DNA from: a virus
Lineage: Duplodnaviria > Caudoviricetes
Strand: one strand, 5' to 3'
Length of the DNA stretch: 64,000 nucleotides
Virus record (IMG/VR): IMGVR_UViG_3300020399_000132
Location: 96,001 to 160,000 of that record
Position 1 is the first letter of the stretch; the number at the start of each line of letters is the position of its first letter. Below are positions 23,588 to 38,960 of the stretch, one piece after another. Made by a program: the position numbers and the translations under genes. The notes under the pieces were generated by a model. The model was given only the letters and a program-made list of their open reading frames with translations, was not told the origin of the DNA and ran no database searches.

Positions 23588-23780
23588 TTTCTTATTCAAA
23601 TCCCCGCCACTGGTTCTTCTTCGACCAGCAACTGAGGTTCTTCTTGGCGTGCTCTCATTTCTTCTCCGATTCCCTCTCTAAATTTGATTTCTGCTTGTAA
23701 TTTACCGAGTAAACCCCTCATTTCTGAGGTTGACATATTTTTAATATCTATTACGCTCCAGTTTTCCATTATTATATCCT

Positions 23781-24421: not shown

Positions 24422-24486
24422 CCTCTCTCTCCTGTTATAAATGCTGAGGGCGTGTCGTCGGAACGACACTCCGAGCCCCCAATAAA

Positions 24487-24783: not shown

Positions 24784-24803
24784 ATTATCTTTATTTATAT
24801 TTC

Positions 24804-25274
24804 TCAATTATAAACTATATCTTCTTCCTCTTCCGATTTTTCAATTGGTTTTATATTTTTCCTTTGTATTTCCGCATGGTACTTCATATGTGCTTCGATA
24901 AGTTTATCTTCGTTAAAAGGCTTATCAGATTGTATCTGCTGAGCTATTTCAATTGCATCATCTGGAGAATCAAACCATTCACTTTTCCACGTTCCTTTAG
25001 CTACAATTGTTCTAGGGTTTGTATATACAATTCCAGATTCTTCAGGTGTCCACCAAAGATGTAACATTCCAATAAATCCTATTTCCGGTGGAGCTTCAAA
25101 TCCTTGTAAAATATGTCTTATGCCCATGCTTTGAAGAAATGGAAACTCTGTTGAATTATAAAACTTATAACGAAATTGAGTTTCCATAGCATGTCTCAAA
25201 TCTTTTCGCATCTTCTCTCTATTGTTCATTTCGTCAGAGCTACTCATATATAAACTCCGATATTTCTTCTCCAT
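24804..25274 (-). CDS. Hypothetical protein
   Basis: Coupled ORF. Confidence 0.55.
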   Translation of the reverse strand: MEKKYRSLYMSSSDEMNNREKMRKDLRHAMETQFRYKFYNSTEFPFLQSMGIRHILQGFEAPPEIGFIGMLHLWWTPEESGIVYTNPRTIVAKGTWKSEWFDSPDDAIEIAQQIQSDKPFNEDKLIEAHMKYHAEIQRKNIKPIEKSEEEEDIVYN

Positions 25275-26034
25275 CTTTTATATGATATAGATCTTCATGA
25301 AACTCTTCTGAGAATTTTGTATTATAAAAGAAATTAGAAATAATATTATACAAAACTATATGATTTGGATATGATAAATGATTCTTACGTTTACTTTCAA
25401 TTTCACTGCGAATAATTCCATCATGAAATTCATTACCGCATACTTCACGTAATTGGGTATCTACGATTTTAAAGTTTGAGTCATTAAGAGTCGACCAATC
25501 ATACGGCACGTCTTTAAATACATTCTTTTCCGTTGTTAATACTAACGTTTTCATATTGAGATGTTTTAAAAACAAACATGTATAAAACGCCCACATTTTA
25601 ATCTCAGGTTTAAAGGTATCATATGCGCCTATAACTTTTTCCATATTATTATAGACACTACCTCCAATTTCATAGCCCTCGCCAGCTTCACCCTTTCTAC
25701 AAAAATCATCTATATTTTCTCCAGATTTATATGCCCTATACATATCGTCTGCGGCTCCAGCATGTGTTGGTTTGTCAAGAAAAGGAAAAGGTATCCGGGT
25801 TCTATCTGTTAATAGAAATATAACTTTATCACCCCGTAAATAACCCTGCCTTGGTAATTTTTCTTGTAATATGCGCAATGACTCATATGTACTTCGACCG
25901 CCATTTGAATTAACATCAATGGCTTCATGTTTTTTTAATTGATTTTGCCAGCACAGATCGCCGTTATCAAAATCCCAGTTATAGTCTGGTTCTTCATTAT
26001 AATCACAATAACTATCACCGTATATTAAATACAT
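25240..26034 (-). CDS. SGNH/GDSL-like protein, paralog 4
   Basis: IYGDSY, NGGRS, NHLSYPNH. Confidence 0.6.
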   Translation of the reverse strand: MYLIYGDSYCDYNEEPDYNWDFDNGDLCWQNQLKKHEAIDVNSNGGRSTYESLRILQEKLPRQGYLRGDKVIFLLTDRTRIPFPFLDKPTHAGAADDMYRAYKSGENIDDFCRKGEAGEGYEIGGSVYNNMEKVIGAYDTFKPEIKMWAFYTCLFLKHLNMKTLVLTTEKNVFKDVPYDWSTLNDSNFKIVDTQLREVCGNEFHDGIIRSEIESKRKNHLSYPNHIVLYNIISNFFYNTKFSEEFHEDLYHIKDGEEISEFIYE

Positions 26035-27184
26035 ACTTATCCTGATCTTTATTAAATATTTCTAAAACCTCGGTGTCGCTTTTAGTTAAGCCTTCTTCGC
26101 GAAACATATCAACCATATCTATGTGTTGTAATTTGTCTAAAGCCTTATAATTATATTCCCTCTTCTCAGAAAGATTCTTACACTTATCTATTAATTCTGA
26201 CGTAGGTATTTTTAAGATTTCTTTTATTTGAGTTATAACTGAATTCAATCTTTCCTTGTAAGGTTTATCATCGAATGAATAGTCAAATAATTCATCATAT
26301 AATTTAAAACCCATATTCTTAAGAGCTTGATGGATATATCTTGGACCTAAAATAATGAATGGTTTCTTATATAACATAGGTTTATATGCTTTTTCTGTTA
26401 ATACAGTACCAGCTGAGATACAATAAGCTTCCGTCACGAGATCAATACAACTTTCAATATATTCTAAGGGTACGCTTTCTTCCCGTGATTGCTGTTTCAG
26501 TTCCCATTCCTCTAATAAATCTTCTCGAGTTCGTTCCTTTAAAGGTTTTTTATTTTTATCTGTCTCGTTTAACTCTGTTAATTCATTTAATAATTCTACT
26601 TCACCATCATCTTTAAAAAACGAATTAATTTGATCTTCATCTTCAAACGGATAGTATGAATATATAAACCTCTCCTCGCCCTGTAAAGCTCTCAGTAAAT
26701 CTATTCTGTGAGGTTTTCGAGTACAATTTAATGATACTACATTATATTTTAAATCTAAATCTAATTCATAAGAACGATTCCTATCTCGCGTATTTCTTAA
26801 AAACTGTGGTATACATACTTCGGGATAGATTATAGGCTTTAAATTACTATCTACTTCGAATCGTTCTATGTTAGAATGTATATTAAAATCACCTGTAATA
26901 TAATATACGTTTTTGCCTTTAAAATCTAAAGTTAAAAGATTATATAAAACATAGTCAGTATATTGATATCTATCATCTGATGTTTTTAATGGACTAAACC
27001 TATCTGTCTCTCCATCAAAAAATATCATATTATCATCTAATAACTCATCTAATAGTGCTTGATTTACTTGATGGTTATTACTTTGTCGTATTCCTAAAAT
27101 AAAAGATGTTCTGTCTCCAGGAACATAGAATCTCATAGATAGAATCCAGATATTTGAAGAGTATATTTGTCTTTCAATCCACAA
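26015..27184 (-). CDS. GT10-like putative glycosyltransferase, paralog 4
   Basis: IDLVTE..LTEKAYKP...KPFIILG..GFKLYDELFDYSFD; start probably MRFYV. Confidence 0.55.
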   Translation of the reverse strand: MWIERQIYSSNIWILSMRFYVPGDRTSFILGIRQSNNHQVNQALLDELLDDNMIFFDGETDRFSPLKTSDDRYQYTDYVLYNLLTLDFKGKNVYYITGDFNIHSNIERFEVDSNLKPIIYPEVCIPQFLRNTRDRNRSYELDLDLKYNVVSLNCTRKPHRIDLLRALQGEERFIYSYYPFEDEDQINSFFKDDGEVELLNELTELNETDKNKKPLKERTREDLLEEWELKQQSREESVPLEYIESCIDLVTEAYCISAGTVLTEKAYKPMLYKKPFIILGPRYIHQALKNMGFKLYDELFDYSFDDKPYKERLNSVITQIKEILKIPTSELIDKCKNLSEKREYNYKALDKLQHIDMVDMFREEGLTKSDTEVLEIFNKDQDKYVFNIR

Positions 27185-27669
27185 TTACCACTTAAATGTA
27201 AATGGCTTGGATCCCATAGATATCCTTCAGCCGCACTCCAATGGGTGCTTGATTGCCAATCATGATTTTCATCTTGATAATGCATCAGGTGTCCTGGTTC
27301 CCAATCTTGCAAATATATATTTGCTCTTACTTTGGGTCTAGTATCATTTGGATATTCATTTTTAAATTTAAAAAATGTATCTCTATGTAGAGTAACAGTA
27401 TTACCTGGTGGCTGAAGTATTGTGCTAACTGTAATTACCTCCATCTTTAATTGTTCACCCAATACTTTATAATCTACATCTCCATCATTAAACCATAATT
27501 GTTGTATTCTTGTATTATCTTCGGTATAGGTTTCAGGAAAACCTCCTGCTATTTCATGTAAATCTTTTTGTTCTGCAGTTTGATAGCTGATACAACTACC
27601 ACGATGTTGGTTATAATCTGCATCTAAAAATACACTCAAATCATAATCTAATTTAATATCTTCAATCAT
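27133..27669 (-). CDS. Cupin/2OG-Fe(II) oxygenase-like protein
   Basis: QPPGN...HRD, RANIYLQDW, HLSGNCG..KYTLQISG. Confidence 0.6.
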   Translation of the reverse strand: MIEDIKLDYDLSVFLDADYNQHRGSCISYQTAEQKDLHEIAGGFPETYTEDNTRIQQLWFNDGDVDYKVLGEQLKMEVITVSTILQPPGNTVTLHRDTFFKFKNEYPNDTRPKVRANIYLQDWEPGHLMHYQDENHDWQSSTHWSAAEGYLWDPSHLHLSGNCGLKDKYTLQISGFYL

Positions 27670-28931
27670 GTTATACCTTTCTCTTTATCTATTTGCTTTG
27701 TGATCTTAAACACATCGGTATATTCTCTACACTCTAATAATTGTTTTTTATTATAATATATTTTGTCCTGAATATCTAGTATTTTTTTATCAAATTCACT
27801 TTTATCCATATTTAAAATGTCTTTCATTTGAGTCATGATTGCTTCATGCCTGTATCTAAATGATTCTATTTCATCAAAACTGTAATCAAATAATTCATCA
27901 TATAATTTAAACCCTAATTGTTCAAATATCTTATACCATCCAGTGCACCCAACAACGAGAAATGGCTTACAATGAACCAATGCTTTACATGTCTTATCAC
28001 TCAAACCAAATGCTCTTATATGATATGTTTCAATAATTAAATCTATCTCCGACTCTAACCACTCCTGCACTGGTAAGAAATCATGATATGCATCTGTGTC
28101 GTCTTCAAAACCTTGTGTAAAAGGCGTTTTAAAATGGATTCGTTTAGTTTGATCAAACCTTTCATTACTCATATTAAATCCACATGATAGATCAACATAC
28201 TTTGTCTCATCACTTCTATTATTAAATTCTATAGCGTCTCCATTCTTTACCCACTTCCAAGAGCTCTTAGGATGCATTCTTTCTACGAATGATGTAAAGA
28301 ACTCATCAGTTTCGGAGCCGTCTCTTCCTATGCTATTAACTTCTGTGCAGTTGAATGAATATATGAATCCAGGTATACCTGCTAATTCTCTAAGTGTTAA
28401 TACTCTAGATATCTTCGGTTGATTAACCATGCTAATCACCCGATATTTTACAGGGATACCCATATCTTCTACAGGTTGATACAACTCATAAAATTTTCGT
28501 AATCTGGAGGCACAGATATCTCTAGCACTTGATGGTACTAGAGGATACATAGTAATTCTCATTTTAGGCTTAACTAATTCACACCAATCATTATAGATAT
28601 GTTCCGCATTTGCATCGCCATTAAGATACCATATTTTATTATCGGGATGAGAATAATTATGAATTATCTCTAATACATTATCATACTGATCACCTAATAA
28701 CGGATGGTATCCTCCTGATTCATTAGCATTCCATATCATTATATTTTTATCTGTCTTCTCCTTTAACCTTTCAAGAGAATAATTCCAATGATCAAATCCA
28801 GGCGGCTTTGGGACGTCCGGTGGTGTTAAAAATTCTTCTTTTGATTCGTATGCGCGGCCGTGACTAATGTATAGCCAATTCCCTGATTCGTTTTGCATTG
28901 TACTCCAATTTAGGTTGTAATCTCTTTTCAA
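27666..28931 (-). CDS. GT10-like putative glycosyltransferase, paralog 3
   Basis: IDLIIET..LSDKTCKA...KPFLVVG..GFKLYDELFDYSFD. Confidence 0.55.
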   Translation of the reverse strand: MKRDYNLNWSTMQNESGNWLYISHGRAYESKEEFLTPPDVPKPPGFDHWNYSLERLKEKTDKNIMIWNANESGGYHPLLGDQYDNVLEIIHNYSHPDNKIWYLNGDANAEHIYNDWCELVKPKMRITMYPLVPSSARDICASRLRKFYELYQPVEDMGIPVKYRVISMVNQPKISRVLTLRELAGIPGFIYSFNCTEVNSIGRDGSETDEFFTSFVERMHPKSSWKWVKNGDAIEFNNRSDETKYVDLSCGFNMSNERFDQTKRIHFKTPFTQGFEDDTDAYHDFLPVQEWLESEIDLIIETYHIRAFGLSDKTCKALVHCKPFLVVGCTGWYKIFEQLGFKLYDELFDYSFDEIESFRYRHEAIMTQMKDILNMDKSEFDKKILDIQDKIYYNKKQLLECREYTDVFKITKQIDKEKGIT

Positions 28932-29937
28932 TTTTTTTTATTTCTTCTTTATCCATATCTAATATCTTATCACATTGTCTCATTATATTTTTCCATCTAT
29001 CTTCAAATAAGGGGTTAGAATCAAAACTGTAATCAAATAATTCATCATATAATTTAAATCCCATTCTTTCAAACTCTCTATACCAATTAGGTCCTCCTAT
29101 AGTTAAGAATATCTTTTTCCAGTATAGCGGCTTGCATGATTTATCTGATAGGTAATTTGCTACACATACTTTATTTTCTTGAACTAAATCTATATACGAT
29201 TGCCACCATTCTTTAGGAGGAAATATGTCGTGTTGACATGAAGTGCCTATTGCTTCTCGAGGACATTCTTCAGTTAATAATACTCTCTCTCGTGCATTAA
29301 AATTTCTAAAACTCAAATCACATGGCGCCGGATAATCCGCAGGATATATCATATCTAATGTTTCAATACTATTGCCGTCGTGCCAGTCCCATTTCTTACC
29401 TAACCAGGCTTCCGTAGTATTTTTCCAATTCTCTCCAATCGCTTCTTCATCGTTTAATAAATGAGTGGGGGTGACTCTGTAAGAATACTTAAACCAAGAA
29501 TTACCTGTTAAACGTCCTAGAGTAAGTAATCGAAATATTCTGGGATTATTAACTAATGTAACAATCTTATAGAGCCGTTTATGGGTAGGTGCTTGATACT
29601 CACTCCACAAGGAATTCATCGTATTCACATACTTTGATATCATAAACCTCCAATTTGGGTTTACTTTTATCTTAAATTCCGGTTTAACTATTTGACACCA
29701 TCTATCATAATTTTGTTGTAATAAACTATCGTGATTGGAAAACGTCACATTATTGTCAGGATGTGCAAAATCATGAATAACCTGTAATAATTTGTCGTCT
29801 TCTCGCCCATGCAACGGATAATAGCCCTGTGCTTCCCACTCGTCTTTAATAACTATAGGTTCATCAATTGGATTAGATATAATTTCTAATTCTGGATACT
29901 CTGTTTTTCCTATAGTGGACTCTACTTTTATAATCAT
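28864..29937 (-). CDS. GT10-like putative glycosyltransferase, paralog 2
   Basis: IDLVQE..LSDKSCKP...FLTIGG..GFKLYDELFDYSFD. Confidence 0.55.
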   Translation of the reverse strand: MIIKVESTIGKTEYPELEIISNPIDEPIVIKDEWEAQGYYPLHGREDDKLLQVIHDFAHPDNNVTFSNHDSLLQQNYDRWCQIVKPEFKIKVNPNWRFMISKYVNTMNSLWSEYQAPTHKRLYKIVTLVNNPRIFRLLTLGRLTGNSWFKYSYRVTPTHLLNDEEAIGENWKNTTEAWLGKKWDWHDGNSIETLDMIYPADYPAPCDLSFRNFNARERVLLTEECPREAIGTSCQHDIFPPKEWWQSYIDLVQENKVCVANYLSDKSCKPLYWKKIFLTIGGPNWYREFERMGFKLYDELFDYSFDSNPLFEDRWKNIMRQCDKILDMDKEEIKKIEKRLQPKLEYNAKRIRELAIH

Positions 29938-30587
29938 AATCCTTTTTCATAATCAATGATATAGCTTTTTATGCTAGGCCTCACATATCGATGATTTATA
30001 AATGTTTTCTTTATTATCTCTTTATTAATTTTGTTTTCATCGTTGACAACAAATTGTATAATTGGAAACTCTGGAAAGGTATCAGCCATAAAAGATTCAG
30101 GAATCTTTATTTGTAAATCAGCAGAAGTAGTTTCAGGAACTCTGGGAGGATAAACGGAAATCACTTCTAAAATTATTCTATCTATTAAGAGATCTTTTAC
30201 ATTATTTAAAAACTCTTTAAATTCGTGATATTCATCAGACTCAAATAGATGATAAAAGTCTCCATTATTTACATGTATAGTTCTATATTCTCTGTATATA
30301 TTCCATTCTATAGATGTATTAGATCTATCAAAATCAACTGTTAGACATTTTTTTAATATATTAACATAATCATGATTCCTAAAACATCCTTCAAATAGCT
30401 TTACATCTACAAAACGAGTTTGTTCATAATCAATTTCATCAATATTTACTGAGGGTGTTATACTATCATCGTCATAATCTGAACATGAACGATATAATTC
30501 TCTGCCAAATACTAAATTATCTAGATGCAGCATATTTTGTCTATACAAAAAACCTCTCTGTTCTCCTACCCCACCACATACATTCAC
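29934..30587 (-). CDS. Hypothetical protein
   Basis: Coupled ORF in cluster. Confidence 0.5.
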   Translation of the reverse strand: MNVCGGVGEQRGFLYRQNMLHLDNLVFGRELYRSCSDYDDDSITPSVNIDEIDYEQTRFVDVKLFEGCFRNHDYVNILKKCLTVDFDRSNTSIEWNIYREYRTIHVNNGDFYHLFESDEYHEFKEFLNNVKDLLIDRIILEVISVYPPRVPETTSADLQIKIPESFMADTFPEFPIIQFVVNDENKINKEIIKKTFINHRYVRPSIKSYIIDYEKGL

Positions 30588-32349
30588 GAGCCCACTTTTC
30601 TAAATTACCATTATATACTTCGTAAGGGTCTTTCATCTTATTATACTGAGTATCAACTATTGAATGATTAAACCCATACTCATCTTTTAAATAATCTCCT
30701 ATTTCTCCATAGAAACGGTCTTTTTCTTTAGCAATATGTATAGCAGTTGCTTCTTCATATTCCCAATATATATTAGAGGCTCCCGGAACTTTACGCCCCC
30801 ATGGAATCTCTCTATCAAATACCTTCTTTAATAGTCTCATTGTTACTGTATATTCTCTATATAGTAATGACTTATCGTTTTCATTAAACCACTCGAATAA
30901 TCCATTATAAAACTCTCTCATTGATATATTATGATTATTCTTTAATTCTAATGCTAATATTCTAAGCCATCCTAAAAAATGTAGAGATATCATAAACCAC
31001 TTCCATCCAGAGGCATCTAAGTATTCATCAAACGTCATATTACTAGAACCGACTACTACAGAATTAGTGTCTTTTAATAATTGGTCTGGAGGATGTTCAT
31101 GGTGAAAAAATGCAGGTGATGTTTGTTTTATTAGTACATTATATTTTCTGCAATATTCAGGATCCCCAAATGGGGTTTGGGGAAGAGCCACCATTATATA
31201 TATGCCGATGTAATTGTGATAATCTATATCATCAATCAATCTAAAGAGACCTTCTTTAAAGCTATGTAGTGATTCCTCTGGTAGTCCAAGAATAGTTTCT
31301 ATGTAACATGGTACTCCTCTACTTTTTAAATAATCTATCACCTCTTTTAGATTAGTATTCTCATTAGATCTTTCAATCGCTTTTAATGTATCATCATTCA
31401 TCGATTGTAGAGCGATTGTAACACTTTTATTAAGGCCTACCTTCCATAAGTCTTCTGCTATATCAAATAGCCATGCCTTCTTATGCTTCGCCCATGTTAT
31501 ATTAAGTGTATCCGGATATCCAGTAGATTTTTTAGTATCAATCAGTAAATCAGATATAATCTTATGATCTTTGAACATGCCAAAATTATTATCAATAAGG
31601 TGTAAGTACTCTATCTTTTTATCAGCTATCCAATCAATCTCTTTTATTAACTTATCATTGTCTTGTCTATGCACTTTGGTCCAGTGCCTATCACCTGTCT
31701 CACAAAAAGTACACATATATGGACAGCCACGCGATAATTCTACTAAGCCCTCCCATTCATATGGATAATCTTTAATTTCCAGGAGATCATCAAATAACCC
31801 ATCTAAATATGGGCTTGGTAGTGTTTTGATGTCTTTTATTCTCTCTCTGTCTCCTCCATTTTGAAATAACGGTGTTGTAATACCCTTGACCATACTGAGG
31901 TCTTGCTCGTGTAATAGCGCTTTAAGGATGTGTTTAAACCCTGTCTCACCTTCATTATGTACTGCCACATCAATGAATGGTTTATCTTTTAAGAACTTTT
32001 TACATCTGTTGGGATGTGGTAAATTTAGCCCGCCGTATATAATTAAACAATTAGGGTTTATCTTTTTTATTTCAGCACATAACCTATCACTCGCGTGCTC
32101 ATTCCATACAAAATAAGAAGTAGCTATGATATCACATTCGGCCAACTTTCTAGCCGTAGCTGAATAATCAAAATCGCCATCAAGTACATACACCCAGTCA
32201 TTAACATCAAAAGAATAATTATCAGTAATCTCTTTATCAGTCCTGCAATAACTCCAAATACAACCTGTTGAGTATGGCAACTTAATCTGGTTGGAAAATA
32301 TATGTGTTAATTCAACAAACGCGATGCGCTTAGAAGTCGTATTGTTCAT
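30541..32349 (-). CDS. Cobalamin-binding radical SAM enzyme
   Basis: SYFVWN, IIYGG, HNEGE (B12-binding-like); ELSRGCPYMCTFC; ILGLPEE. Confidence 0.88.
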   Translation of the reverse strand: MNNTTSKRIAFVELTHIFSNQIKLPYSTGCIWSYCRTDKEITDNYSFDVNDWVYVLDGDFDYSATARKLAECDIIATSYFVWNEHASDRLCAEIKKINPNCLIIYGGLNLPHPNRCKKFLKDKPFIDVAVHNEGETGFKHILKALLHEQDLSMVKGITTPLFQNGGDRERIKDIKTLPSPYLDGLFDDLLEIKDYPYEWEGLVELSRGCPYMCTFCETGDRHWTKVHRQDNDKLIKEIDWIADKKIEYLHLIDNNFGMFKDHKIISDLLIDTKKSTGYPDTLNITWAKHKKAWLFDIAEDLWKVGLNKSVTIALQSMNDDTLKAIERSNENTNLKEVIDYLKSRGVPCYIETILGLPEESLHSFKEGLFRLIDDIDYHNYIGIYIMVALPQTPFGDPEYCRKYNVLIKQTSPAFFHHEHPPDQLLKDTNSVVVGSSNMTFDEYLDASGWKWFMISLHFLGWLRILALELKNNHNISMREFYNGLFEWFNENDKSLLYREYTVTMRLLKKVFDREIPWGRKVPGASNIYWEYEEATAIHIAKEKDRFYGEIGDYLKDEYGFNHSIVDTQYNKMKDPYEVYNGNLEKWARECMWWGRRTERFFV

Positions 32350-33385
32350 TTTTACCTTCTCTATGTAAGTCCAATGTCACACAATGAAATCCACCCCCTA
32401 ATGTTTTAGCATGTCTTAGGCGCATGGGGATTGAATCAATATTATATTTTTTTAATTCTTTTATTAGTGGCGTTTGACTTTCTTCTACAATAACTACTTT
32501 TTCATTAATACTTAAAATATTTAGTCCTATTGCGGGTGATGCAATAGCAATGCTAGCGTCAGATGAACCACTGCTGCTTCTAATACCCTGATCTACTATA
32601 TCTGTAAAGAATATCTTATCCCATTTCTTAAATATTTCAGGATAATTATCTTCACTACATCTATGTCCGTTTAATAATACGAGACCTGGTCTTAACGGTA
32701 TTACTGTGCTGTCAAAATGTGCTCCTGAATACTGATATGCTAGATGTACATTATATTCTGGAAACATTGATTGAAGCCATTTGCCTCCTTTTTCATTACC
32801 GCTATTACTCACCTGATATAATAAATCTTTGCCCATTCTTACAACATTTGCGGCGTCAAAAAGAATTTCTTTATTCATTAATGTTGGTTTCGATAAGTCT
32901 TCAAAATTAAACGATGCATCTAATAATTGAGGTCTAGGAGCTGAGAACCATTTACCGGAACATTGATTCAAAATACGTCTATAGGCGTGCATCTCAAAGT
33001 ACCGACTACGCATTACATTGGGAGTTTCAATTAAACAATCATTTAGTACTAAAAATATATCACGCGGGCAATAATTATACCATCCTTGTGCTATCCATTC
33101 CGAAGACATTACTCTTCTTTTGTGATTTGTTTTATCTGGTCTATGAACTTTTATATCCAAACTTGTCAGAACCTTACAAAACAACCCTAAATCTTCATTG
33201 GTCTCTTCTATAACTTGTTTATCATACGATCCAACTAGAGATTTAATTTTATTATCACTCAAATTCGCATACATGAAATTCTTCATGGATAAATCAAACG
33301 AAGGTATCCGAGCACCGGTAGCATCTCCAACGATTACCTCTTTAAGAGGGTCCCATCCGTTACAGGATTGTATAATAGTTTCCAA
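32330..33385 (-). CDS. Amidinotransferase (AGAT/StrB family)
   Basis: WDPLKEVIVG, CPRD, FDAAN, HFDST, GGGFHCVTLD. Confidence 0.92.
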   Translation of the reverse strand: METIIQSCNGWDPLKEVIVGDATGARIPSFDLSMKNFMYANLSDNKIKSLVGSYDKQVIEETNEDLGLFCKVLTSLDIKVHRPDKTNHKRRVMSSEWIAQGWYNYCPRDIFLVLNDCLIETPNVMRSRYFEMHAYRRILNQCSGKWFSAPRPQLLDASFNFEDLSKPTLMNKEILFDAANVVRMGKDLLYQVSNSGNEKGGKWLQSMFPEYNVHLAYQYSGAHFDSTVIPLRPGLVLLNGHRCSEDNYPEIFKKWDKIFFTDIVDQGIRSSSGSSDASIAIASPAIGLNILSINEKVVIVEESQTPLIKELKKYNIDSIPMRLRHAKTLGGGFHCVTLDLHREGKNEQYDF

Positions 33386-34100
33386 TTTTAAATAATTCTT
33401 TTTGTGTTTGCCATTTGCCTCTCTTTCTTACTTTTACATCAGAAAGACTTTCATTATTATATTCACTCCAACCACATGCTTTGAAGTCCATAGAAACTCT
33501 AGTATTTTTAGATTTATTATGCACGTAGCCACCATGCAACACTTGATCAAACACAACCATTTCTCCATGTTTAGGTGTTTGCATTACATCATCTACAAAT
33601 ATGCCGTTATCCTCATCCATATCTGTTAAAGGAATTATAAAATTAGTTTCAAACTCTGGGTGATGAAAAGGAAAATCCATTTCATAATGTATATTAGCTT
33701 CTCTATCGTTTATTAGAGTTGTATCTTCATAAAATTTCCAATCATATCCTGATGGGAATATTTTAATTGATGGTAATTGTTGTATTACCGTATTCTCACC
33801 AAACCAAGATTTCACTACATCTTTTTGAAACTCCCACCACATAAATCTAAACGCATAGGACTCATGCAATAATACTCTATAGAGTTTTTCAATCAATCCA
33901 TATTGTGTATCTTCTTCTGGTAAATGTACTCCGCCTGCAGTATTATAAGTCACTGGTTTAATGTCATGATTCAAATGTATATCTTCAAGTCGACCTAAGC
34001 AGTCTTCAAACCATTTTCTAAAGTTATATTTCTCTATGTCATATTTGATTATCTCAATCATATACAAACTCGTCTTTATTATATGTGCCTTTATACACAT
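33360..34100 (-). CDS. StrG-like/2OG-Fe(II) fold protein
   Basis: QQLPSIKI, HHPEFETNFIIPLT, HG..HN...TRVSMDFK; start probably MIEII at 34061. Confidence 0.6.
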   Translation of the reverse strand: MCIKAHIIKTSLYMIEIIKYDIEKYNFRKWFEDCLGRLEDIHLNHDIKPVTYNTAGGVHLPEEDTQYGLIEKLYRVLLHESYAFRFMWWEFQKDVVKSWFGENTVIQQLPSIKIFPSGYDWKFYEDTTLINDREANIHYEMDFPFHHPEFETNFIIPLTDMDEDNGIFVDDVMQTPKHGEMVVFDQVLHGGYVHNKSKNTRVSMDFKACGWSEYNNESLSDVKVRKRGKWQTQKELFKIGNYYTIL

Positions 34101-34842
34101 TCTTTAAAAATTTAGGAATTTCCTTACCGTCTACAAACCCAGCTATTTGTTTGTACATTACCTCATGATTGACATCTGTAAGGTGATTAACTCTAAAATG
34201 AAGATCATCGGATATTTTATGAATTAACCTTTCTTCTTCTACATATTCATTCCAAACAACTCTCTCTAATCCTTCATCATGGACGTAAAAATATTCATCA
34301 TTTAATGAATTTTTAATATAAGATTCTTCCATACTTAAATGGTATATGAATATTTTACATTTTTGTATTCTTGAAGCTGTATATAATAATGATTCATATT
34401 TCCAATTACCATAGACAGTTTCATCGCGGAATGTATCTACAGCAAAGCGTGCCTTGTCTTTATTTATTTTTATCCATTTATCATATTCAGATTCTAATTC
34501 GATACCATCTCCTGCTTTGTCCGATGATTCTGAATCCGTAATATTTCTTACTATCCTACCATTCCATTGGTGTATTTCGTCGCCGGCTTCTTCAATGTTA
34601 AAATATATTCTAGGAGCTCCTGACACAACAAATACAATTAAATCCTCATGAGTATAACTATGAAGACTCTCATAAAATTTTTTAAATGAATACATCGGCC
34701 CTGAACCGGATTTACCATAATTTACAGTTTCAGGCCACCTCTTTCTCAATAATCCATACCATGTAATTTCTTGCCACCTGGAGGGATCACTCCAACTAGG
34801 ATCTGCAAAGCTATCTCCATATATCGTTACTCTTTCAATCAT
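34054..34842 (-). CDS. SGNH/GDSL-like protein, paralog 3
   Basis: IYGDSFAD, NYGKSGSG, NHLTDVNH. Confidence 0.6.
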   Translation of the reverse strand: MIERVTIYGDSFADPSWSDPSRWQEITWYGLLRKRWPETVNYGKSGSGPMYSFKKFYESLHSYTHEDLIVFVVSGAPRIYFNIEEAGDEIHQWNGRIVRNITDSESSDKAGDGIELESEYDKWIKINKDKARFAVDTFRDETVYGNWKYESLLYTASRIQKCKIFIYHLSMEESYIKNSLNDEYFYVHDEGLERVVWNEYVEEERLIHKISDDLHFRVNHLTDVNHEVMYKQIAGFVDGKEIPKFLKNVYKGTYNKDEFVYD

Positions 34843-35608
34843 ATATAAATCTGTCTGTTGGTTGAACTGGTTCTTCTAACAGATTTTGTTTAAATTCTGG
34901 TACCGTGTGAATACCTTGAACAAAATTATTAATAATATTATACATTATTTTATGATTAGGTTCAGATAAATGGTTATTTCTTTTATTATCTTCATAAAAA
35001 GGTTCACCTGGATTTTTATATTCATTTCTAGATATATCTTGTAAAGCTATAGGATTTATATAAAATAATTTATCATTAAGGCTATCTTTTATATACGAAT
35101 CATCATAGTTTAAAAAGAATATACAAATTTTACATTTATGTATTCTGGATATTGTATAGAGAAATGATTCATTCTTTTTATTACTGTTTATCATCTCTCT
35201 TTCAAATGTCTTCATCGTATAAGACATATGATCTTTATGAGATTGATGAAAAGATGAATCTAGGACATCATTGCATTTCATTTTTTGATTTTTAAAATCC
35301 CAATAAGATTCATGAACTAACTGAATATCATTGCGTTCATAGGTTCTATACTCTTTGGGAAGATGATATTGAATTCTTTCTTCTCCAGATAAAATCCATA
35401 TGACTAAATCTTCTTTATCAAATTGTTTATATCGTCTATAAAACTCTTTCATACTATAATGAGGCCCAGTACCAGCCATAGCGAAGTTTTTATACTCGTA
35501 TTGCTTAGCTAACGTTTCATACCAAGTCTCATGATCCGGCATATTTTCATGGTCCCAATTTGGATCTGCGTAGCTGTCACCAAATATCCATACTCTTTTA
35601 ATCGTCAT
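34835..35608 (-). CDS. SGNH/GDSL-like protein, paralog 2
   Basis: IFGDSYAD, NFAMAGTG, NHLSEPNH. Confidence 0.6.
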   Translation of the reverse strand: MTIKRVWIFGDSYADPNWDHENMPDHETWYETLAKQYEYKNFAMAGTGPHYSMKEFYRRYKQFDKEDLVIWILSGEERIQYHLPKEYRTYERNDIQLVHESYWDFKNQKMKCNDVLDSSFHQSHKDHMSYTMKTFEREMINSNKKNESFLYTISRIHKCKICIFFLNYDDSYIKDSLNDKLFYINPIALQDISRNEYKNPGEPFYEDNKRNNHLSEPNHKIMYNIINNFVQGIHTVPEFKQNLLEEPVQPTDRFIYD

Positions 35609-36233
35609 ACCACTCCAAATTACTAATATCTTTATAATGATTATTATCAGCTATATCTTTATCGTCGAAACCAAAATTAATGCGATCATTAAAATTAAAT
35701 AATCCTAATTCTGCAGTTTCTGGGGGCATGTACATATTATACCCAGATGCCATAAGCTTGTCATCTACATACTTTACATCTTTATTTCTGCCCATATAAA
35801 TCATTGGTCTTGCCCAGTCAACAAAATCTTTATTATCTGTTAATATCATACCACCTCTAACAGTAGATATTGTTTTTCTATGATGGAAACTAAGACAATA
35901 ATAAGTATCCGAAAAATACATGTTTTCGGTAAATCTACATGCAGAATCAACAATATCCAGTGATTCTATCGGATAATATCCCTTCCATTTGAAATCTATA
36001 AATTTTAATTTATAGCCGGCATGCTGAAGTGATTGGGGTACACTTATATATGTTTGTTTAGGTAATTCTGCTATGTTATTATATGTTTCAAATGGCTTAA
36101 TTTTTTTATTCCATAATGCTGCTATAAAAATTGCATTAGTACAGCTGTCTGTAGCTACTGCATATTTGGAGCCGCCAAATTCTGCAATTGTTTCTTCAAA
36201 TTCTTTTACTTTGTTCCACATTAAATAACTCAC
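35598..36233 (-). CDS. DegT/DnrJ/EryC1/StrS PLP aminotransferase (short form)
   Basis: FEETIAEF.G.KYAVATDSCT.A, DSAC, SFHHRK...RGGMI. Confidence 0.85.
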   Translation of the reverse strand: MSYLMWNKVKEFEETIAEFGGSKYAVATDSCTNAIFIAALWNKKIKPFETYNNIAELPKQTYISVPQSLQHAGYKLKFIDFKWKGYYPIESLDIVDSACRFTENMYFSDTYYCLSFHHRKTISTVRGGMILTDNKDFVDWARPMIYMGRNKDVKYVDDKLMASGYNMYMPPETAELGLFNFNDRINFGFDDKDIADNNHYKDISNLEWYDD

Positions 36234-37098
36234 AATAATGATTATAATTAAATACTATTTTATCTTTAACTGTTTTAATCTTCTTCGTAAATATATCGGG
36301 CTCCATTTGCATATAAGGTTCTATTGAATCGTTTAATCTGTTTAGGCGTCTCCAATTTGGATCAAACACTCCGCCGTCAAAACTATAATCAAATAATTCA
36401 TCATATAACTCAAAACCAAGATCTTTTAACTTAGCATGGATTCCTTGACCACCCCAAACTAAGAAAGGTTTTTGAAATACTATAGGTTTCCATGTTTTTT
36501 CTGTAATAAAAAGAGAATCAATGGTTGATTCTAATACCAAATCACAATTAGATTGATAATATTCAAGGGGCACTAATTCTTGAAATCCTCGATGATCGGA
36601 TTCTATCTCCGTAAGCTTTATTATATCAAGATTAGAAAAACCATTTTTACCTTTATATTCTTCTAATGGAGTGTCCGGATGCCATTTATACTCTATTTCA
36701 TTAACTTTAGAATAAGGATTATTAGAATATATAAAATATTTATTAGTATATAATTTATCTAATAATTCATACTTGTGTTCTCTGGGGGCTGAGCATAAGC
36801 TAATAAAATTATATTTTATAGGACCGTGAAGTACTGGGCGATTATAATATATGTCTCTACTGCGTTGGCTAATTTCTGTTAGGAAGGAGTAAGGATCATA
36901 AACTATTTTAAGTTTATCATTCTTCAGATTACCATCAGCAGTGTAATACGTTACTTCATTAGGTAAGTCTTCTAAAAACTTGATAATATCTTCTCTGAAC
37001 ACCTCCCATACATCATAGACCTCTATGGGGCCTTCAACGTTTAACAAGGGTGTTAGATCTGGATTATTAACTGTTGGTGGGTTAATATAAAATTTCAT
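36196..37098 (-). CDS. GT10-like putative glycosyltransferase, paralog 1
   Basis: DLVLES..FITEKTWKP...KPFLVWG..GFELYDELFDYSFD. Confidence 0.55.
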   Translation of the reverse strand: MKFYINPPTVNNPDLTPLLNVEGPIEVYDVWEVFREDIIKFLEDLPNEVTYYTADGNLKNDKLKIVYDPYSFLTEISQRSRDIYYNRPVLHGPIKYNFISLCSAPREHKYELLDKLYTNKYFIYSNNPYSKVNEIEYKWHPDTPLEEYKGKNGFSNLDIIKLTEIESDHRGFQELVPLEYYQSNCDLVLESTIDSLFITEKTWKPIVFQKPFLVWGGQGIHAKLKDLGFELYDELFDYSFDGGVFDPNWRRLNRLNDSIEPYMQMEPDIFTKKIKTVKDKIVFNYNHYCELFNVEQSKRI

Positions 37099-37949
37099 TC
37101 ATATATAAAGTCTACTAACTTATTTGGATCCGGATCATGTCGATTTTCACCGGCTTCTACATCACGAATAAAGTGTTCGTGAAACTTGGTAGGCAAATCT
37201 GTTTTATTAAAATGGTTTGTTATTATATTACTTAACACTGTATGATTACGATGTGTAAAATGATTAATCATACCGGCATGATGAATATTTTCATCTGACC
37301 ATTCTTTTTTTGAATGATCAAATAAAGGAAATGAATAAAAATGAAATAAATTATCATTAAGACTTGTAAAATCAAATAACTCTTCTTTGTGTACTCTACT
37401 AAAAGGATTAGGAGTCATTCCCCATACACGAAAAACTATCATTGGCCAATTGTTCAACTTAGATAGTGCATGAAGATATGAAACATTCTTTAAGTTTTGA
37501 TGATCAAATTCATCCCACATACTTTCATAAAGAGATGTTATACTAAATTCCTCTTCTGGTGTATAATAATATTCAGCAAGTTCCGGATTTCCTTCACGTT
37601 TAGCCATCCAATCTTGATATGCTGAAGATGGGTCTATACCACCTTTCCGGTTTCTTTTATCACTAGGGTTTTTTGTACTATCTGTAGTTCCTTCTAGCCA
37701 AGTCCAAGGAATTCTATATGTACTAGATAATACAAATACGAACTTAGGATTTAATCCAAAACATTCTTGCTCATAATGCCGATGAAATTTTGCTAATGTG
37801 CCGGCAGGCCCTTCACCACATTTTCCATGATTATCATGTTCTTCATCTAGATTTTTAGAAAGCATTTGATACCAACGTTCATGGTCGCGCATTCCTAATT
37901 TTTCTGCTCGTTCATTTTCTACAAAACTATCACCATACAAATATATCAT
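37095..37949 (-). CDS. SGNH/GDSL-like protein, paralog 1
   Basis: MIYLYGDSF, NHGKCGEG, NHFTHRNH. Confidence 0.6.
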   Translation of the reverse strand: MIYLYGDSFVENERAEKLGMRDHERWYQMLSKNLDEEHDNHGKCGEGPAGTLAKFHRHYEQECFGLNPKFVFVLSSTYRIPWTWLEGTTDSTKNPSDKRNRKGGIDPSSAYQDWMAKREGNPELAEYYYTPEEEFSITSLYESMWDEFDHQNLKNVSYLHALSKLNNWPMIVFRVWGMTPNPFSRVHKEELFDFTSLNDNLFHFYSFPLFDHSKKEWSDENIHHAGMINHFTHRNHTVLSNIITNHFNKTDLPTKFHEHFIRDVEAGENRHDPDPNKLVDFIYE

Positions 37950-38095
37950 TTTCCCTGACCGCGGTATTTTTTCCAACACTTACGTTTATGTTTGTTCTTC
38001 GGTTTGGTATATTTTGACTTTCCAATGGAAGTTCGTTTCGGTGTTACTTTAATCTTTTTCGTTTGTGTTAATCCGTATGCTGTTCTTTTAGCCAT
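37946..38095 (-). CDS. Small basic T4-like conserved protein (49 aa, not in ORF track)
   Basis: MAKR...KRTSIG...NKHKRKCWKKYRGQGK, C-terminus typical of marine T4-like phages. Confidence 0.75.
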   Translation of the reverse strand: MAKRTAYGLTQTKKIKVTPKRTSIGKSKYTKPKNKHKRKCWKKYRGQGK

Positions 38096-38098
38096 TTG

Positions 38099-38392
38099 TT
38101 AATCATTTTCTATCTGTTGAATTGTATCGGGATAAGGCCAGGAATGCTTCTCAACTTCAATCTTGGACTCTGCTTCTTTCTTTTCCCTATGGGCCATCAA
38201 ATCAAGAATATCTTGTCCTAACTCGGTAAGATCACTATTGGTTAGATAAGGGAGAAAGCTATTAATAACGCGTGCCATATTCTGATGCGAATATAACATT
38301 TCTTTTTTATTAATGTATATTTGAATATTTTCTTCACTCATAGGAATTTGATGACATCTTCTCTTGAATATTATAAGCCTTTTTGCCATCAT
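38099..38392 (-). CDS. Hypothetical protein
   Basis: ORF; start probably MSEEN. Confidence 0.5.
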   Translation of the reverse strand: MMAKRLIIFKRRCHQIPMSEENIQIYINKKEMLYSHQNMARVINSFLPYLTNSDLTELGQDILDLMAHREKKEAESKIEVEKHSWPYPDTIQQIEND

Positions 38393-38960
38393 AATAATAT
38401 AAAGATTGATGAGGAGACTCTGTGGGGGTACTGTTACTTTGATAATAAAATTGTCTTATAGCGTATCTAGTGCCGCTTGTTATTTCTGTTACACTATGTG
38501 GAGCCGAGTCATTATTTTTAAACAATACTGACGTATTATGATTCGGCACATGACTCCACATAATATTTTTTCTTTCTTTATCCCAGAGACGAAATTCACC
38601 TCCTTTACAGTCCCCAAGATATATCATTAAACTGAATGCTCTGTTTAATTTTACTCTATTATTCCAATTAAAATCTATATGAGGATCGAGTTTACATCCT
38701 TTAGTCATTTTGGATATACCTTCGCCCACGCCTAATGGATCAAATAACAATCCTTCTAGGCCTGTTTCCTCTTCTAAATTTTTAATTGTGCGTTGTGAAT
38801 GAAGTTGATTATATACTTCTCTAAGAACAGTATGCTCCTCCCAATCATAATATTCATACATCAAACTATTATTTCTCTCAAAAGTTTTCCAATTTTCAAT
38901 TCCTTCAAGAGTTTTAAGACAGCTTGTCGCTATTTTTTTATCAAGAAAACAAGACTTCAT
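38334..38960 (-). CDS. 2OG-Fe(II) oxygenase (prolyl-hydroxylase-like)
   Basis: LDPHIDFN, MIYL..GGEFRLW, PHSV, R...FYY. Confidence 0.85.
   Translation of the reverse strand: MKSCFLDKKIATSCLKTLEGIENWKTFERNNSLMYEYYDWEEHTVLREVYNQLHSQRTIKNLEEETGLEGLLFDPLGVGEGISKMTKGCKLDPHIDFNWNNRVKLNRAFSLMIYLGDCKGGEFRLWDKERKNIMWSHVPNHNTSVLFKNNDSAPHSVTEITSGTRYAIRQFYYQSNSTPTESPHQSLYYYDGKKAYNIQEKMSSNSYE

Follow-up and report, generated by a model that had tools for sequence, protein, structure and literature searches.

A translationally coupled gene cluster in a marine T4-like phage, predicted to tailor a sugar and assemble a decorated glycan

We asked what could be made by a tightly packed 14-kb operon of predicted soluble enzymes in an uncultured marine T4-like phage, found within a 64,000-nucleotide stretch of viral DNA (the window). 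The first-pass annotation had read the locus as a pathway for an amidino/amino-modified glycan and had likened its aminotransferase and amidinotransferase to the enzymes of streptidine synthesis. In published papers, the module has been annotated only. We favor, at a probability of roughly 0.55, a reading in which the soluble, acidic enzymes of a single translationally coupled operon would tailor a sugar and assemble a short decorated glycan. The most likely product class is an amino/guanidino-modified, methylated sugar chain, although we know of no guanidino-sugar glycan.

Organization of the operon

The whole cluster lies on the minus strand, where every feature named in the first-pass annotation was present (Table 1). 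Positions 25240 to 38960 hold 17 genes, a 49-codon open reading frame (ORF) included. From 37,949 to 24,487 the genes form a single string with an overlap of 4–38 nt at every junction: from GDS4 through the SET-domain gene, each in-frame start sits 4–38 nt before the stop of the gene upstream, bearing out the coupling that had been proposed. Above GDS4, what looks like a 119-nt gap holds the 49-codon ORF, with a stop that overlaps the ATG of GDS4. The cluster proteins are acidic (pI 4.8–6.7) and have zero transmembrane segments. Membership of the SET-domain gene in the pathway is uncertain.

Table 1. Genes of the cluster in order of transcription. L numbers denote related viral loci; YDE, YDELFDY family.
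Feature	Position	Strand	Basis and remarks
P4H-type 2OG-Fe(II) oxygenase, head of conserved block	38334..38960	-	Pfam PF13640 E 4.6e-16; syntenic in L007, L008, L010, L011
97-aa protein	38099..38392	-	ORF only, no family match; present in L007 and L010 only
Putative small ORF, 49 codons, very basic	37946..38095	-	TGA overlaps next gene's ATG; conserved only in near-identical contig L007; expression uncertain
GDS4, SGNH-fold paralog 4	37095..37949 (ORF to 37979)	-	Likely start ATG 37949; paralog alignment and family model
YDE paralog 4, GT-B glycosyltransferase-like, 300 aa, minimal form	36196..37098	-	AF2 model and structure matches
Half-size DegT/StrS-type PLP aminotransferase, 211 aa	35598..36233	-	Pfam PF01041, 63.7 bits (cut-off 19.8)
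GDS3, SGNH-fold paralog 3 (modelled)	34835..35608	-	Structure matches
GDS2, SGNH-fold paralog 2	34054..34842	-	36% identical to GDS3; same invariant residues
PhyH-like 2OG-Fe(II) oxygenase	33360..34061	-	Likely start 34061; residue pattern, Atlas, TIGR04324
StrB1-type L-arginine amidinotransferase	32330..33385	-	phmmer vs PDB
Predicted cobalamin-dependent (class B) radical SAM C-methyltransferase-like enzyme	30541..32349	-	Pfam, NCBIfam, PDB matches
217-aa protein	29934..30587	-	No Pfam, PHROG or NCBIfam match; only in near-identical L007
YDE paralog 3, SDK variant of TEK motif	28864..29937	-	Sequence
YDE paralog 2, SDK variant	27666..28931	-	Sequence
Small AspH-like cupin 2OG-Fe(II) oxygenase	27133..27669	-	Invariant residues; Atlas neighbours
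YDE paralog 1	26015..27136 (ORF to 27184)	-	Likely start ATG 27136, overlapping upstream stop
GDS1, SGNH-fold paralog 1	25240..26034	-	Sequence
156-aa protein, still translationally coupled	24804..25274	-	Sub-threshold Pfam Glyco_tranf_2_5, E 6e-4; syntenic in L007, L008
SET-domain protein, last coupled gene	24487..24807	-	Pfam SET E 1.8e-11; 4-nt overlap with upstream gene; syntenic in L007, L008

Candidate tailoring enzymes and their neighbors in relatives

The predicted amidinotransferase matches StrB1 (PDB 1BWD) end to end (E 7.6e-84), followed by HsvA (5e-54), SxtG (2e-49) and AGAT (4e-46). Scores of 285 bits for StrB1 and about 160 for AGAT support a StrB1-like rather than AGAT-like enzyme, narrowing the original StrB/AGAT label, and the Asp/His/Cys triad (D109, H223, C335) is unchanged in 10 of 10 viral homologues. 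The aminotransferase had been placed rightly in the DegT family: it matches the PseC, LegC, DesI and ArnB family models, and all 10 viral homologues compared (196–228 aa) keep its PLP lysine (S-F-x3-K). However, it is a truncated form, missing the C-terminal domain that characterised sugar aminotransferases have.

The B12-binding radical SAM enzyme and the further 2OG-Fe enzymes of the first-pass annotation, three in number, were likewise located. The former has a CxxxCxxC motif, a Pfam Radical_SAM match (2.9e-15), a weak B12-binding match and a match to the NCBIfam KedN5 family (E 6.4e-67) that falls under that model's cut-off; its closest PDB relatives are the C-methylases TokK (1e-56) and CysS (4e-42), and we predict a TokK/KedN5/CysS-like cobalamin C-methyltransferase. 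In the AspH-like oxygenase, H95-x-D97, R115 and H158 are invariant in nine homologues, and its Atlas neighbours are named Asp/Asn/Pro hydroxylases (PF05118 in 19% of members). The protein first described as StrG-like behaves, as judged from its sequence, like a PhyH-like 2OG oxygenase: the pattern H-P-x-E...H-G-G...R-x-S-x-D-F is invariant across six homologues, PhyH occurs in 15% of members of its Atlas neighbour cluster, and TIGR04324, the 'sporadic carbohydrate cluster 2OG oxygenase', matches below cut-off (E 6e-4).

The streptidine branch of Streptomyces griseus, in which StsC precedes StrB1, uses the same two enzyme superfamilies as this one phage operon; the phage amidinotransferase has the length and catalytic residues of StrB1, and the logic of an amine followed by a guanidine is common to both. 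The cluster might then make a soluble, streptidine-type aminocyclitol or aminoglycoside-like pseudo-oligosaccharide, a small molecule acting on host or competitors rather than a decoration. Consistent with this, the amidinotransferase finds its best PDB match in an inosamine-phosphate enzyme, a DegT/StsC-type aminotransferase lies in the cluster, and a twitch-domain radical SAM gene (NF033640) is found at 9031–10380, of a family that co-occurs with YDE genes (21/24 loci versus 0/56). The twitch-domain enzyme BtrN oxidises an aminocyclitol ahead of DegT-type transamination in butirosin synthesis. Three homologues were also called 'antibiotic synthesis genes' by the authors describing phage S-SCSM2R (PMC12801897). 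Yet the phage aminotransferase is truncated, its partners are GT-B transferases, a cobalamin radical SAM enzyme and 2OG oxygenases, and the cluster encodes no inositol or 2-deoxy-inosose synthase, inositol dehydrogenase, kinase, phosphatase, exporter or resistance gene. Four transferase and four esterase-like paralogs also better suit a polymer or glycoconjugate. We consider such a small molecule improbable and find no support for the classic inositol-to-streptidine route; of the first interpretation, the folds, the StrB1-type enzyme and the gene co-occurrence stood, while the streptidine analogy, which fails at the dehydrogenase, kinase and phosphatase, reaches no further than the aminotransferase and amidinotransferase.

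Gene neighborhoods in relatives point instead toward sugars. Dozens of IMG/VR contigs carry the amidinotransferase with YDE, DegT, B12-radical SAM and small AspH-like oxygenase genes, the co-occurrence on which the first reading had depended. Within 10 kb of the amidinotransferase at 65 viral loci, YDE genes were found in 38, the B12-radical SAM gene in 30, the AspH-like gene in 29 and DegT in 26. The radical SAM gene directly follows the amidinotransferase in L007–L019 and L068, an adjacency that persists to 57% identity, whereas the pairing of amidinotransferase and DegT is far from obligatory (26/65 amidinotransferase-anchored loci, and 16 of the best 80 loci for the short DegT). These same 80 loci include an SDR in 47 and a UDP-glucose dehydrogenase (UGDH) in 18. 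The jumbo-phage contig L054 encodes a fusion of an NAD epimerase/dehydratase (SDR) domain with a YDE domain (hhalign probability 99.5, E 2.6e-23), followed by UGDH and then two more YDE genes, and in L023 a GDP-mannose-dehydratase-family SDR adjoins the amidinotransferase. Since distant relatives surround these genes with sugar-nucleotide enzymes, the substrate is likely to be a sugar and not a cyclitol or scyllo-inosamine phosphate.

The grouping of UGDH, SDR and short DegT (L054; 18/80 DegT-anchored loci) recalls the ArnA/ArnB route to UDP-4-amino-4-deoxy-L-arabinose, which employs Ugd, an SDR decarboxylase and a DegT-family aminotransferase. Unlike that route, the window's cluster contains no SDR, dehydratase, nucleotidyltransferase or UGDH; in the rest of the phage genome a sole SDR was found, and NTP_transferase and UGDH were not. 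We therefore assume that the keto-sugar comes from the host. Amidination and transfer to an acceptor have no Arn counterpart.

GT-B-fold and SGNH-fold paralogs

The four YDE proteins are 25–32% identical in pairs. Paralogs 1–3 carry the motif ...GFKLYDELFDYSFD and paralog 4 carries GFELYDELFDYSFD, with an E-x(9-10)-TEK/SDK-x2-K-P...G block upstream in all four. The AF2 model of paralog 4 (pLDDT 85.5, pTM 0.85) confirms, at the level of predicted structure, a shared GT-B glycosyltransferase fold, which the first-pass annotation had made decisive for its reading: all of the best 50 VIA matches are GT-B enzymes. T4 beta-glucosyltransferase (BGT) came first (Z 10.0, next 9.1), with T4 AGT at 8.0, three GT10 fucosyltransferases at 8.6–8.9 and other GT-B families scoring equally; Z values of 8–10 exceed the tool's background by a moderate margin only, and a difference of about 1 is a near tie by its standard. 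The top Foldseek match is the H. pylori alpha1,3-fucosyltransferase. The suggested likeness to GT10 thus holds for the fold, common to YDE proteins and GT10 alpha1,3/4-fucosyltransferases (H. pylori FucT 2NZW/5ZOI, FUT9, plant FUT11/13), and we take the conserved acidic residue, T/S-E/D-K and K-P...G of the C-terminal domain to resemble the GT10 donor-binding motif. Unlike GT10 enzymes, none of 35 YDE family members matched any Pfam model, PF00852 and the other glycosyltransferase models included, and no NCBIfam glycosyltransferase model matched YDE proteins. A profile search found 12,773 YDE cluster representatives; tblastn with one window paralog against 50,697 deposited phage records found no homologue.

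Could the acceptor be phage DNA, through glycosylation of a modified base, as in T4 and 5hmC-glycan phages, or amidination of aminomethyl-deazaguanine? The phage genome encodes QueC and a QueE-like gene. Amidinotransferase homologues occur in Campylobacter phages, which are known for deazaguanine DNA. T4 BGT is the single best YDE structure match, and phage GT-B enzymes that attach mono- to trisaccharides to 5hmC are documented (bioRxiv 10.1101/2023.12.21.572611). Nevertheless, the Z lead of BGT is close to a tie, and the genome (CheckV 100% complete) has no match to a thymidylate-synthase-like hydroxymethylase, C5 DNA methyltransferase or TGT/DpdA; nor was Tet_JBP matched, though the control for that search stayed silent. 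With net charges of -6 to -18, all four YDE proteins are acidic and so a poor fit to a DNA-binding groove. DNA is a disfavoured acceptor, and we regard its hypermodification as very unlikely.

The GDS paralogs, like the YDE proteins, form a family without annotation; they are 24–36% identical, share invariant G-D-S, Gly, Arg and N-H residues, and all terminate in F-[IV]-Y-[DE]. The GDS3 model (pLDDT 80.5) best matches the OatA C-terminal domain in VIA (Z 11.1, rmsd 3.3, 141 residues), and nearly all of its top 50 structure matches are SGNH/GDSL proteins, so the SGNH fold first proposed is confirmed in the model. Blocks III and V are non-canonical; the block V Asp of D-x-x-H is absent, with Arg at -3. 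Cytoplasmic SGNH proteins are more commonly esterases than acyltransferases. The four paralogs are specific to close relatives of the window phage.

OatA and PatB, the top GDS matches, O-acetylate cell-wall glycans, and the same chemistry could act on a glycan of the host envelope, be it the LPS O-chain or core, the capsule or an S-layer glycan, remodelling the cell surface against superinfection or progeny trapping. This is the usual proposal for hypervariable-region glycosyltransferases of pelagimyophages and cyanomyophages, and a pelagimyophage survey reads hypervariable glycosyltransferase and radical SAM cassettes as O-chain modification (PMC7029224); 2 kb upstream of the cluster (41074–41697) there is also a member of the GT25 'LPS biosynthesis' family. 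We hold this to be possible though unlikely. The 19 proteins include no flippase, polymerase, initiating phosphoglycosyl transferase, AT3/MBOAT partner, signal peptide or membrane segment; OatA/PatB-type SGNH domains act outside the cytoplasm, whereas the GDS proteins look cytoplasmic; and replacing a surface polymer needs time, of which a lytic phage has little.

A proposed pathway and its acceptor

In the pathway we favor, the half-size DegT enzyme would transaminate a keto-sugar (the likeliest being a host 4-keto sugar in nucleotide-activated form), and the StrB1-type enzyme would turn the new amine into a guanidine with arginine as donor. The cobalamin radical SAM enzyme may then put on one or more C-methyl groups, and the three 2OG-Fe(II) oxygenases may hydroxylate the sugar or its acceptor. 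Each of the four deeply diverged GT-B transferases would add one residue or linkage, with the four divergent SGNH-fold proteins adding or removing ester groups. For the acceptor we weakly prefer a phage (virion) protein to a host envelope glycan, and both to DNA.

Protein side chains might instead be modified directly, by 2OG hydroxylation, amidination of Lys/Orn to homoarginine-type residues and SET methylation, after which GT-B enzymes would glycosylate the hydroxylated positions, as in collagen or mimivirus. The P4H-like and AspH-like families are best known for protein hydroxylation, the last coupled gene encodes a SET domain, and the nearby GT25 gene belongs to a family that includes collagen hydroxylysine galactosyltransferases. 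But StrB1/AGAT-family substrates are small amines, not proteins, DegT substrates are keto-sugars or cyclitols, and the SDR and UGDH link in relatives would go unexplained; we judge this the least probable explanation.

A decorated virion protein has parallels in the capsid glycans of chlorovirus PBCV-1 (A075L) and in mycobacteriophage virion glycosylation, which likewise use soluble, virus-encoded cytoplasmic glycosyltransferases without lipid-carrier machinery, and A075L is among the YDE structure matches (Foldseek E 5e-3, VIA Z 7.3). Those systems differ in transferase family and have no counterpart to the amino-to-guanidino and radical SAM tailoring.

Related modules occur in other large T4-like phages. 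Campylobacter phages CP220 and CPt10 carry a radical SAM and 'glycine amidinotransferase' module (Timms et al., 2010; PMC2853527); the CP220 amidinotransferase is homologous to the window's at 30% identity but, unlike the cluster described here, CP220 encodes five non-B12 radical SAMs. The amidinotransferase of the Synechococcus phage S-SCSM2R is 38% identical; its surroundings, like those in the window, include several glycosyltransferases as well as a radical SAM, a short DegT and an AspH-like oxygenase.

Genomic setting and organization of the cluster

The window spans bases 96,001-160,000 of a 177,419 bp IMG/VR virus record that CheckV rates as complete (100%). Because the genome carries gp46/gp47-type recombination genes, has Methylophilales phage Melnitz (49% identity by gp46) and cyanomyoviruses (about 47%) as its nearest cultured relatives, and encodes ThyX but no psbA, we regard its source as a marine T4-like myovirus whose host was probably non-cyanobacterial. 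In view of the missing psbA and these nearest isolates, we set aside a cyanophage identity.

Every gene between 24.0 and 41.7 kb of the window lies on the minus strand. The first-pass annotation had described a coupled 14-kb cluster for an amidino- or amino-modified glycan, and the word coupled proved accurate: at every junction from GDS4, the fourth SGNH-like paralog, to a SET-domain gene, an in-frame start lies 4-38 nt ahead of the preceding stop. The sole apparent gap, 37,980-38,098, is occupied by a basic 49-codon open reading frame, its TGA overlapping the start of GDS4, which is probably at 37949, and the operon extends about 750 bp past the lower boundary first assigned to it. Translations confirmed both of the four-member paralog sets that had been reported, the GT-B-like YDELFDY (YDE) proteins and the SGNH-like GDS proteins. 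Paralogs within either set are merely 24-36% identical, so the duplications are old. The fully overlapping operon and the four-plus-four arrangement are distinctive to the window. When the 13.7-kb region was compared by megablast with 50,697 phage records, a collection from which the window's own record may be missing, no match was returned. A T4-type late promoter (TATAAATA) was not found upstream of the operon.

Positions of the cluster genes and of other features discussed in the text (window coordinates unless stated)
Feature	Position	Strand
Twitch radical SAM gene	9031-10380	-
PRPP synthetase	10377-11312	
Small glutamine-synthetase-like protein	15667-16710	-
Basic K-R-K-R-K-x-W motif	about 23555-23650	
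SpeD-type SAM decarboxylase	24002-24469	-
SET-domain gene	24487-24807	-
GDS...NH set (SGNH-like)	25240-26034, 34054-34842, 34835-35608, 37095-37979	-
YDELFDY set (GT-B-like)	26015-27184, 27666-28931, 28864-29937, 36196-37098	-
Putative AspH-like oxygenase	27133-27669	-
Cobalamin (B12) radical SAM	30541-32349	-
Predicted amidinotransferase	32330-33385	-
Putative PhyH-like oxygenase	33360-34061	-
Short DegT	35598-36233	-
Basic 49-codon ORF	37946-38095	-
P4H-type 2OG oxygenase	38334-38960	-
Protease, 185-aa protein, GT25 genes	39355-41697	-
IscA-type genes	41942-42364, 42318-42686	-
IscU/NifU gene	43537-43917	-
Asparagine-synthase-like amidotransferase	45601-47037	-
QueE-like radical SAM gene	58946-59911	-
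QueC gene	genome C1:3339-3980	

The 49-codon frame is extremely basic and rich in Lys, Arg, Thr and Ser. We set aside the idea that it is a RiPP-like precursor or acceptor, as it is conserved only in one contig (L007) that is 94-100% identical to the window phage; a loosely similar basic motif, K-R-K-R-K-x-W, occurs at about 23555-23650. The SET-domain gene is the last coupled gene and is followed by a SpeD-type SAM decarboxylase, and Synechococcus phage S-SCSM2R likewise has a SpeD gene close to its homologous cluster. Directly upstream of the operon are a trypsin-PDZ (DegP-like) protease, a 185-aa protein with a hydrophobic segment and a GT25-family glycosyltransferase, all syntenic with the cluster in two related contigs (L007 and L008).

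Fold predictions for the two paralogous families

The YDELFDY proteins are invisible to the profile libraries searched. No Pfam, PHROG or NCBIfam model matches them; 35 diverse members hit nothing in Pfam at E up to 1, including PF00852 and the other GT models; their profile found nothing among PDB sequences at the same limit; and tblastn of one paralog against the 50,697 phage records gave no match. An AF2 model built from the 35-sequence alignment was nonetheless confident (pLDDT 85.5, pTM 0.85), and its best 50 matches among 48,161 PDB chains are all GT-B enzymes (Z 7.0-10.0 over 200-250 residues). T4 beta-glucosyltransferase heads the list (Z 10.0), followed by trehalose-phosphate synthases, three GT10 fucosyltransferases and POGLUT (Z 8.4-9.1), with T4 AGT (Z 8.0) and chlorovirus A075L (Z 7.3) also matched. 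The first-pass annotation had made its reading of these proteins depend on a GT-B fold, and at the level of the predicted structure that fold, with its two Rossmann-like domains, is established.

The invariant or nearly invariant residues E190, E200, K201, P205, K210 and P211 lie in the C-terminal domain, where GT10 enzymes have a donor-binding motif with the catalytic Glu-Lys pair; an F-D-Y-S-F-D block of the YDE proteins lies in that domain as well. The first Foldseek hit was an H. pylori alpha1,3-fucosyltransferase, with a weak E (1.2e-3). Likeness of the model to GT10 is a reasonable lead, though by sequence the family falls outside GT10 (PF00852).

Searched with a YDE profile, 1.84 billion cluster representatives yielded 12,773 family members at E up to 1e-3, many of them tandem two-domain proteins of 680-800 aa, and all those with names are labelled ‘hypothetical protein’. 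The highest-scoring representatives (P0147-P0173) contain two full YDE domains in tandem within 680-800 aa, and one reaches 1,091 aa. One narrow peptide pattern, searched in 185,579 cellular genomes, found five loci, a count that does not imply absence from cells; four of the five sit on MAG contigs, 2-28 kb long and possibly of viral origin. YDELFDY seems to be a large family with a glycosyltransferase fold, essentially viral in distribution and outside all domain databases; giving it a name would lend an annotation to thousands of marine and freshwater virome genes now called ‘hypothetical’. The only YDE gene found on a large cellular contig (L076, positions 7479-8453 of a 936-kb Bdellovibrionia MAG contig) sits amid six radical SAM genes, two of which encode twitch proteins (NF033640), so the association of YDE with radical SAM genes is not confined to phages.

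The GDS family is small, with 26 clusters in a word-indexed search, and its alignment, run as a profile against PDB sequences, gave nothing significant. Its model (pLDDT 80.5) has the flavodoxin-like SGNH fold that had been proposed for these paralogs: the top structural matches are the OatA catalytic domain (Z 11.1) and EstA (Z 10.9), the top 50 consist almost wholly of SGNH/GDSL proteins, and Foldseek returned SGNH matches at probability 0.98-1.0. Blocks I and II are canonical, with G10, D11, S12 and G46 invariant in 16 sequences. Block III reads S74-G-x-x-R78 (R invariant) after strand 67-73 in place of G-x-N-D, and an invariant N-D pair comes later, at 178-179. The canonical D-x-x-H of block V is altered, as H213 is invariant and adjoined by N212, while Arg (R210) almost invariably occupies position -3. 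The family may use a Ser-His dyad, or its acid may be displaced. Judged by the model, the family is a divergent SGNH branch of putative esterases or transferases.

In all four GDS paralogs, and in almost every metagenomic homologue, the protein terminates in F-[IV]-Y-[DE]-stop, inside a tail of low model confidence; a TATGA in these C-terminal codons doubles as the ATG source for the next gene. The conservation may act on the protein (a docking motif?) or on the nucleotides (coupling).

Tailoring enzymes and their company in related phages

The amidinotransferase aligned over residues 4-351 with residues 3-348 of StrB1 (1BWD; E 7.6e-84, 285 bits), the Streptomyces inosamine-phosphate amidinotransferase, clearly better than with HsvA, SxtG or AGAT (153-187 bits, E 1e-44 to 1e-54). 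The StrB1 catalytic triad, Asp108/His227/Cys332, lines up with C-P-R-D109, H223-x-D-S-T and G-G-G-F-H-C335 of the phage protein, and D109, H223 and C335 are invariant across 10 viral homologues of 43-80% identity. By sequence, then, the protein belongs to the StrB1/AGAT amidinotransferase family (pentein fold), with predicted arginine-dependent amidino transfer. The ArcS-type ‘amidinotransferase’ of the deazaguanine papers was discarded as an unrelated family; the word occurs there solely in reference lists.

The other enzymes named in the first-pass annotation, a DegT aminotransferase, a B12-binding radical SAM protein and 2OG-Fe oxygenases, also held up. The DegT protein is genuine (PF01041, 63.7 bits against a cut-off of 19.8) although, at 211 aa, it departs from the two-domain architecture of about 360-400 aa, and its profile matches span only positions of about 23-96 and about 180-255. 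Since ten viral homologues, all of 196-228 aa, keep the PLP lysine motif S115-F116-x3-K120 invariant, it is a minimal form that has been conserved, rather than a broken gene. The radical SAM protein has CxxxCxxC (Radical_SAM Pfam, E 2.9e-15) and a weak B12-binding match (E 4e-4, under the cut-off); the motif and the similarity of its closest characterized matches, the cobalamin C-methyltransferases of the KedN5 family (E 6e-67), TokK (1e-56) and CysS (4e-42), place it among class B methyltransferases. At 226 bits against a subfamily cut-off of 700, it is related to the KedN5 subfamily without being a member.

Besides the P4H-type 2OG oxygenase, sequence features indicate two further oxygenases. 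One is small and AspH-like, with H-x-D...H and an Arg invariant in nine homologues and AspH-like language-model neighbours. The other is PhyH-like, as indicated by an H-P-x-E...H...R-x-S pattern, its Atlas neighbours and similarity, below threshold, to a ‘sporadic carbohydrate cluster’ oxygenase. Profile searches with either alignment against PDB sequences gave nothing significant.

Co-occurrence in relatives had been set as a test of the cluster, and it was borne out. Within 10 kb of the amidinotransferase in 65 IMG/VR loci we counted YDE genes in 38, the B12 radical SAM in 30, the AspH-like oxygenase in 29, the short DegT in 26, GDS genes in 14 and the PhyH-like oxygenase in 13. Adjacency of the amidinotransferase to the B12 radical SAM is kept down to 57% identity, and a separate group at 41-44% identity has the order DegT-amidinotransferase-YDE. 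The short DegT anchors at least 584 viral loci, and the best 80 of these include SDR (47), YDE (24), PhyH-like oxygenase (22), twitch radical SAM (21), B12 radical SAM (21), UDP-glucose dehydrogenase (18) and amidinotransferase genes (16).

Two related loci indicate a substrate class. A jumbo-phage contig (L054) encodes, in order, GT7, two twitch radical SAMs, DegT, amidinotransferase and a 719-aa protein that joins an N-terminal NAD epimerase/dehydratase domain to a C-terminal YDE half (hhalign probability 99.5), followed by UDP-glucose dehydrogenase and two more YDE genes. Its neighbours of 246, 345 and 284 aa have no Pfam hit; no relation emerged between the 345-aa protein and the YDE profile, or between the 284-aa protein and the PhyH-like profile. 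In the second locus (L023), between gp15 and the tail sheath gene, lie an amidinotransferase, two AspH-like genes, a GDP-mannose-dehydratase-family SDR and a B12 radical SAM. Mainly because of such fusions and neighbours, we place the chemistry on nucleotide sugars.

The window phage itself has a twitch radical SAM gene (NF033640, E 6e-67) beside a PRPP synthetase gene, 15 kb from the cluster. Among the best 80 DegT-anchored loci, the twitch family occurs in 21 of the 24 with YDE and in 0 of the 56 without (Fisher p 2e-16, uncorrected for relatedness), with as many as 7 copies within 20 kb. The twitch protein may be part of one system with the cluster.

Proposed product and acceptor

The cluster is real and coherent, combining known enzyme superfamilies with a large unclassified GT-B family and a small divergent SGNH family. 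It best fits a variant of virus-encoded glycan biosynthesis not described before. From the observed folds, catalytic residues, coupling and co-occurrence we infer a route in which DegT would transaminate a keto-sugar and the amine would then be amidinated with arginine as donor. The B12 radical SAM would C-methylate in the manner of TokK, CysS or GenK-type enzymes, the oxygenases would hydroxylate, each of the four diverged GT-B proteins would add one residue, and the SGNH proteins would handle ester groups. SDR and dehydrogenase genes are absent from the cluster; elsewhere the genome encodes a single SDR but neither UGDH nor a nucleotidyltransferase, so the precursor would have to come from the host. 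Streptidine-type pathway enzymes (inositol/inosose-forming, kinase, phosphatase) were not found among the 19 cluster proteins with Pfam, PHROGs or NCBIfam. A guanidino-sugar product is a plausible hypothesis; if the chemistry is right, phages make such a sugar with an enzyme known elsewhere from the pathways to streptomycin-type antibiotics.

All 19 cluster proteins are acidic and without a membrane segment, and lipid-carrier machinery is not present, which argues against classical surface-polysaccharide assembly. DNA is a second conceivable acceptor, and the QueE-like and QueC genes indicate 7-deazaguanine precursor synthesis. Against it, despite these genes, are the net negative charge of the YDE proteins, the absence of TS-like hydroxymethylase (PF00303) and C5-methyltransferase (PF00145) from the complete genome in searches whose controls responded, and the failure to detect a TGT/DpdA homologue (PF01702) in the genome. 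TET/JBP (PF12851) likewise had no match genome-wide in a search whose control was equally silent. A soluble product is possible. Chloroviruses and mycobacteriophages glycosylate their virions, and this analogy, together with clusters like L023 inside the tail module, weakly favours a phage protein as the acceptor.

In its most far-reaching form, to which we give roughly one chance in four, the reading is that large aquatic phages use the YDE family and a StrB1-type amidinotransferase to decorate their own virion proteins with an oligosaccharide that is cationic, C-methylated and carries guanidino groups. We know of no glycan that contains a guanidino-sugar; if true, this would be the first, and no T4-like marine phage would have been described with a glycan coat before it. 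Host recognition, particle stability, aggregation and grazing would all be affected by a charged glycan, whether it sits on virions or on the infected cell.

Related modules have been noted before. Campylobacter phages CP220 and CPt10 carry five radical SAM genes and a putative glycine amidinotransferase as an interchangeable module, with no function assigned (Timms et al., 2010; PMC2853527). In S-SCSM2R, a homologous trio was labelled ‘antibiotic synthesis genes’ without tests (2025; PMC12801897); that locus also has several glycosyltransferases and an AspH-like oxygenase. A pelagimyophage survey ascribed hypervariable-region glycosyltransferases to O-chain modification (PMC7029224). Many large phages carry the module, and cultured ones among them, such as S-SCSM2R and CP220, offer a way to examine what it does.

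Two IscA-type genes and an IscU/NifU gene lie just upstream of the cluster; through them the phage itself could provide Fe-S clusters for its several radical SAM enzymes. On the far flanks are a small glutamine-synthetase-like protein and an asparagine-synthase-like amidotransferase; the latter, from the family that makes acetamidino sugars in bacteria, could be an additional amidino-type tailoring enzyme.
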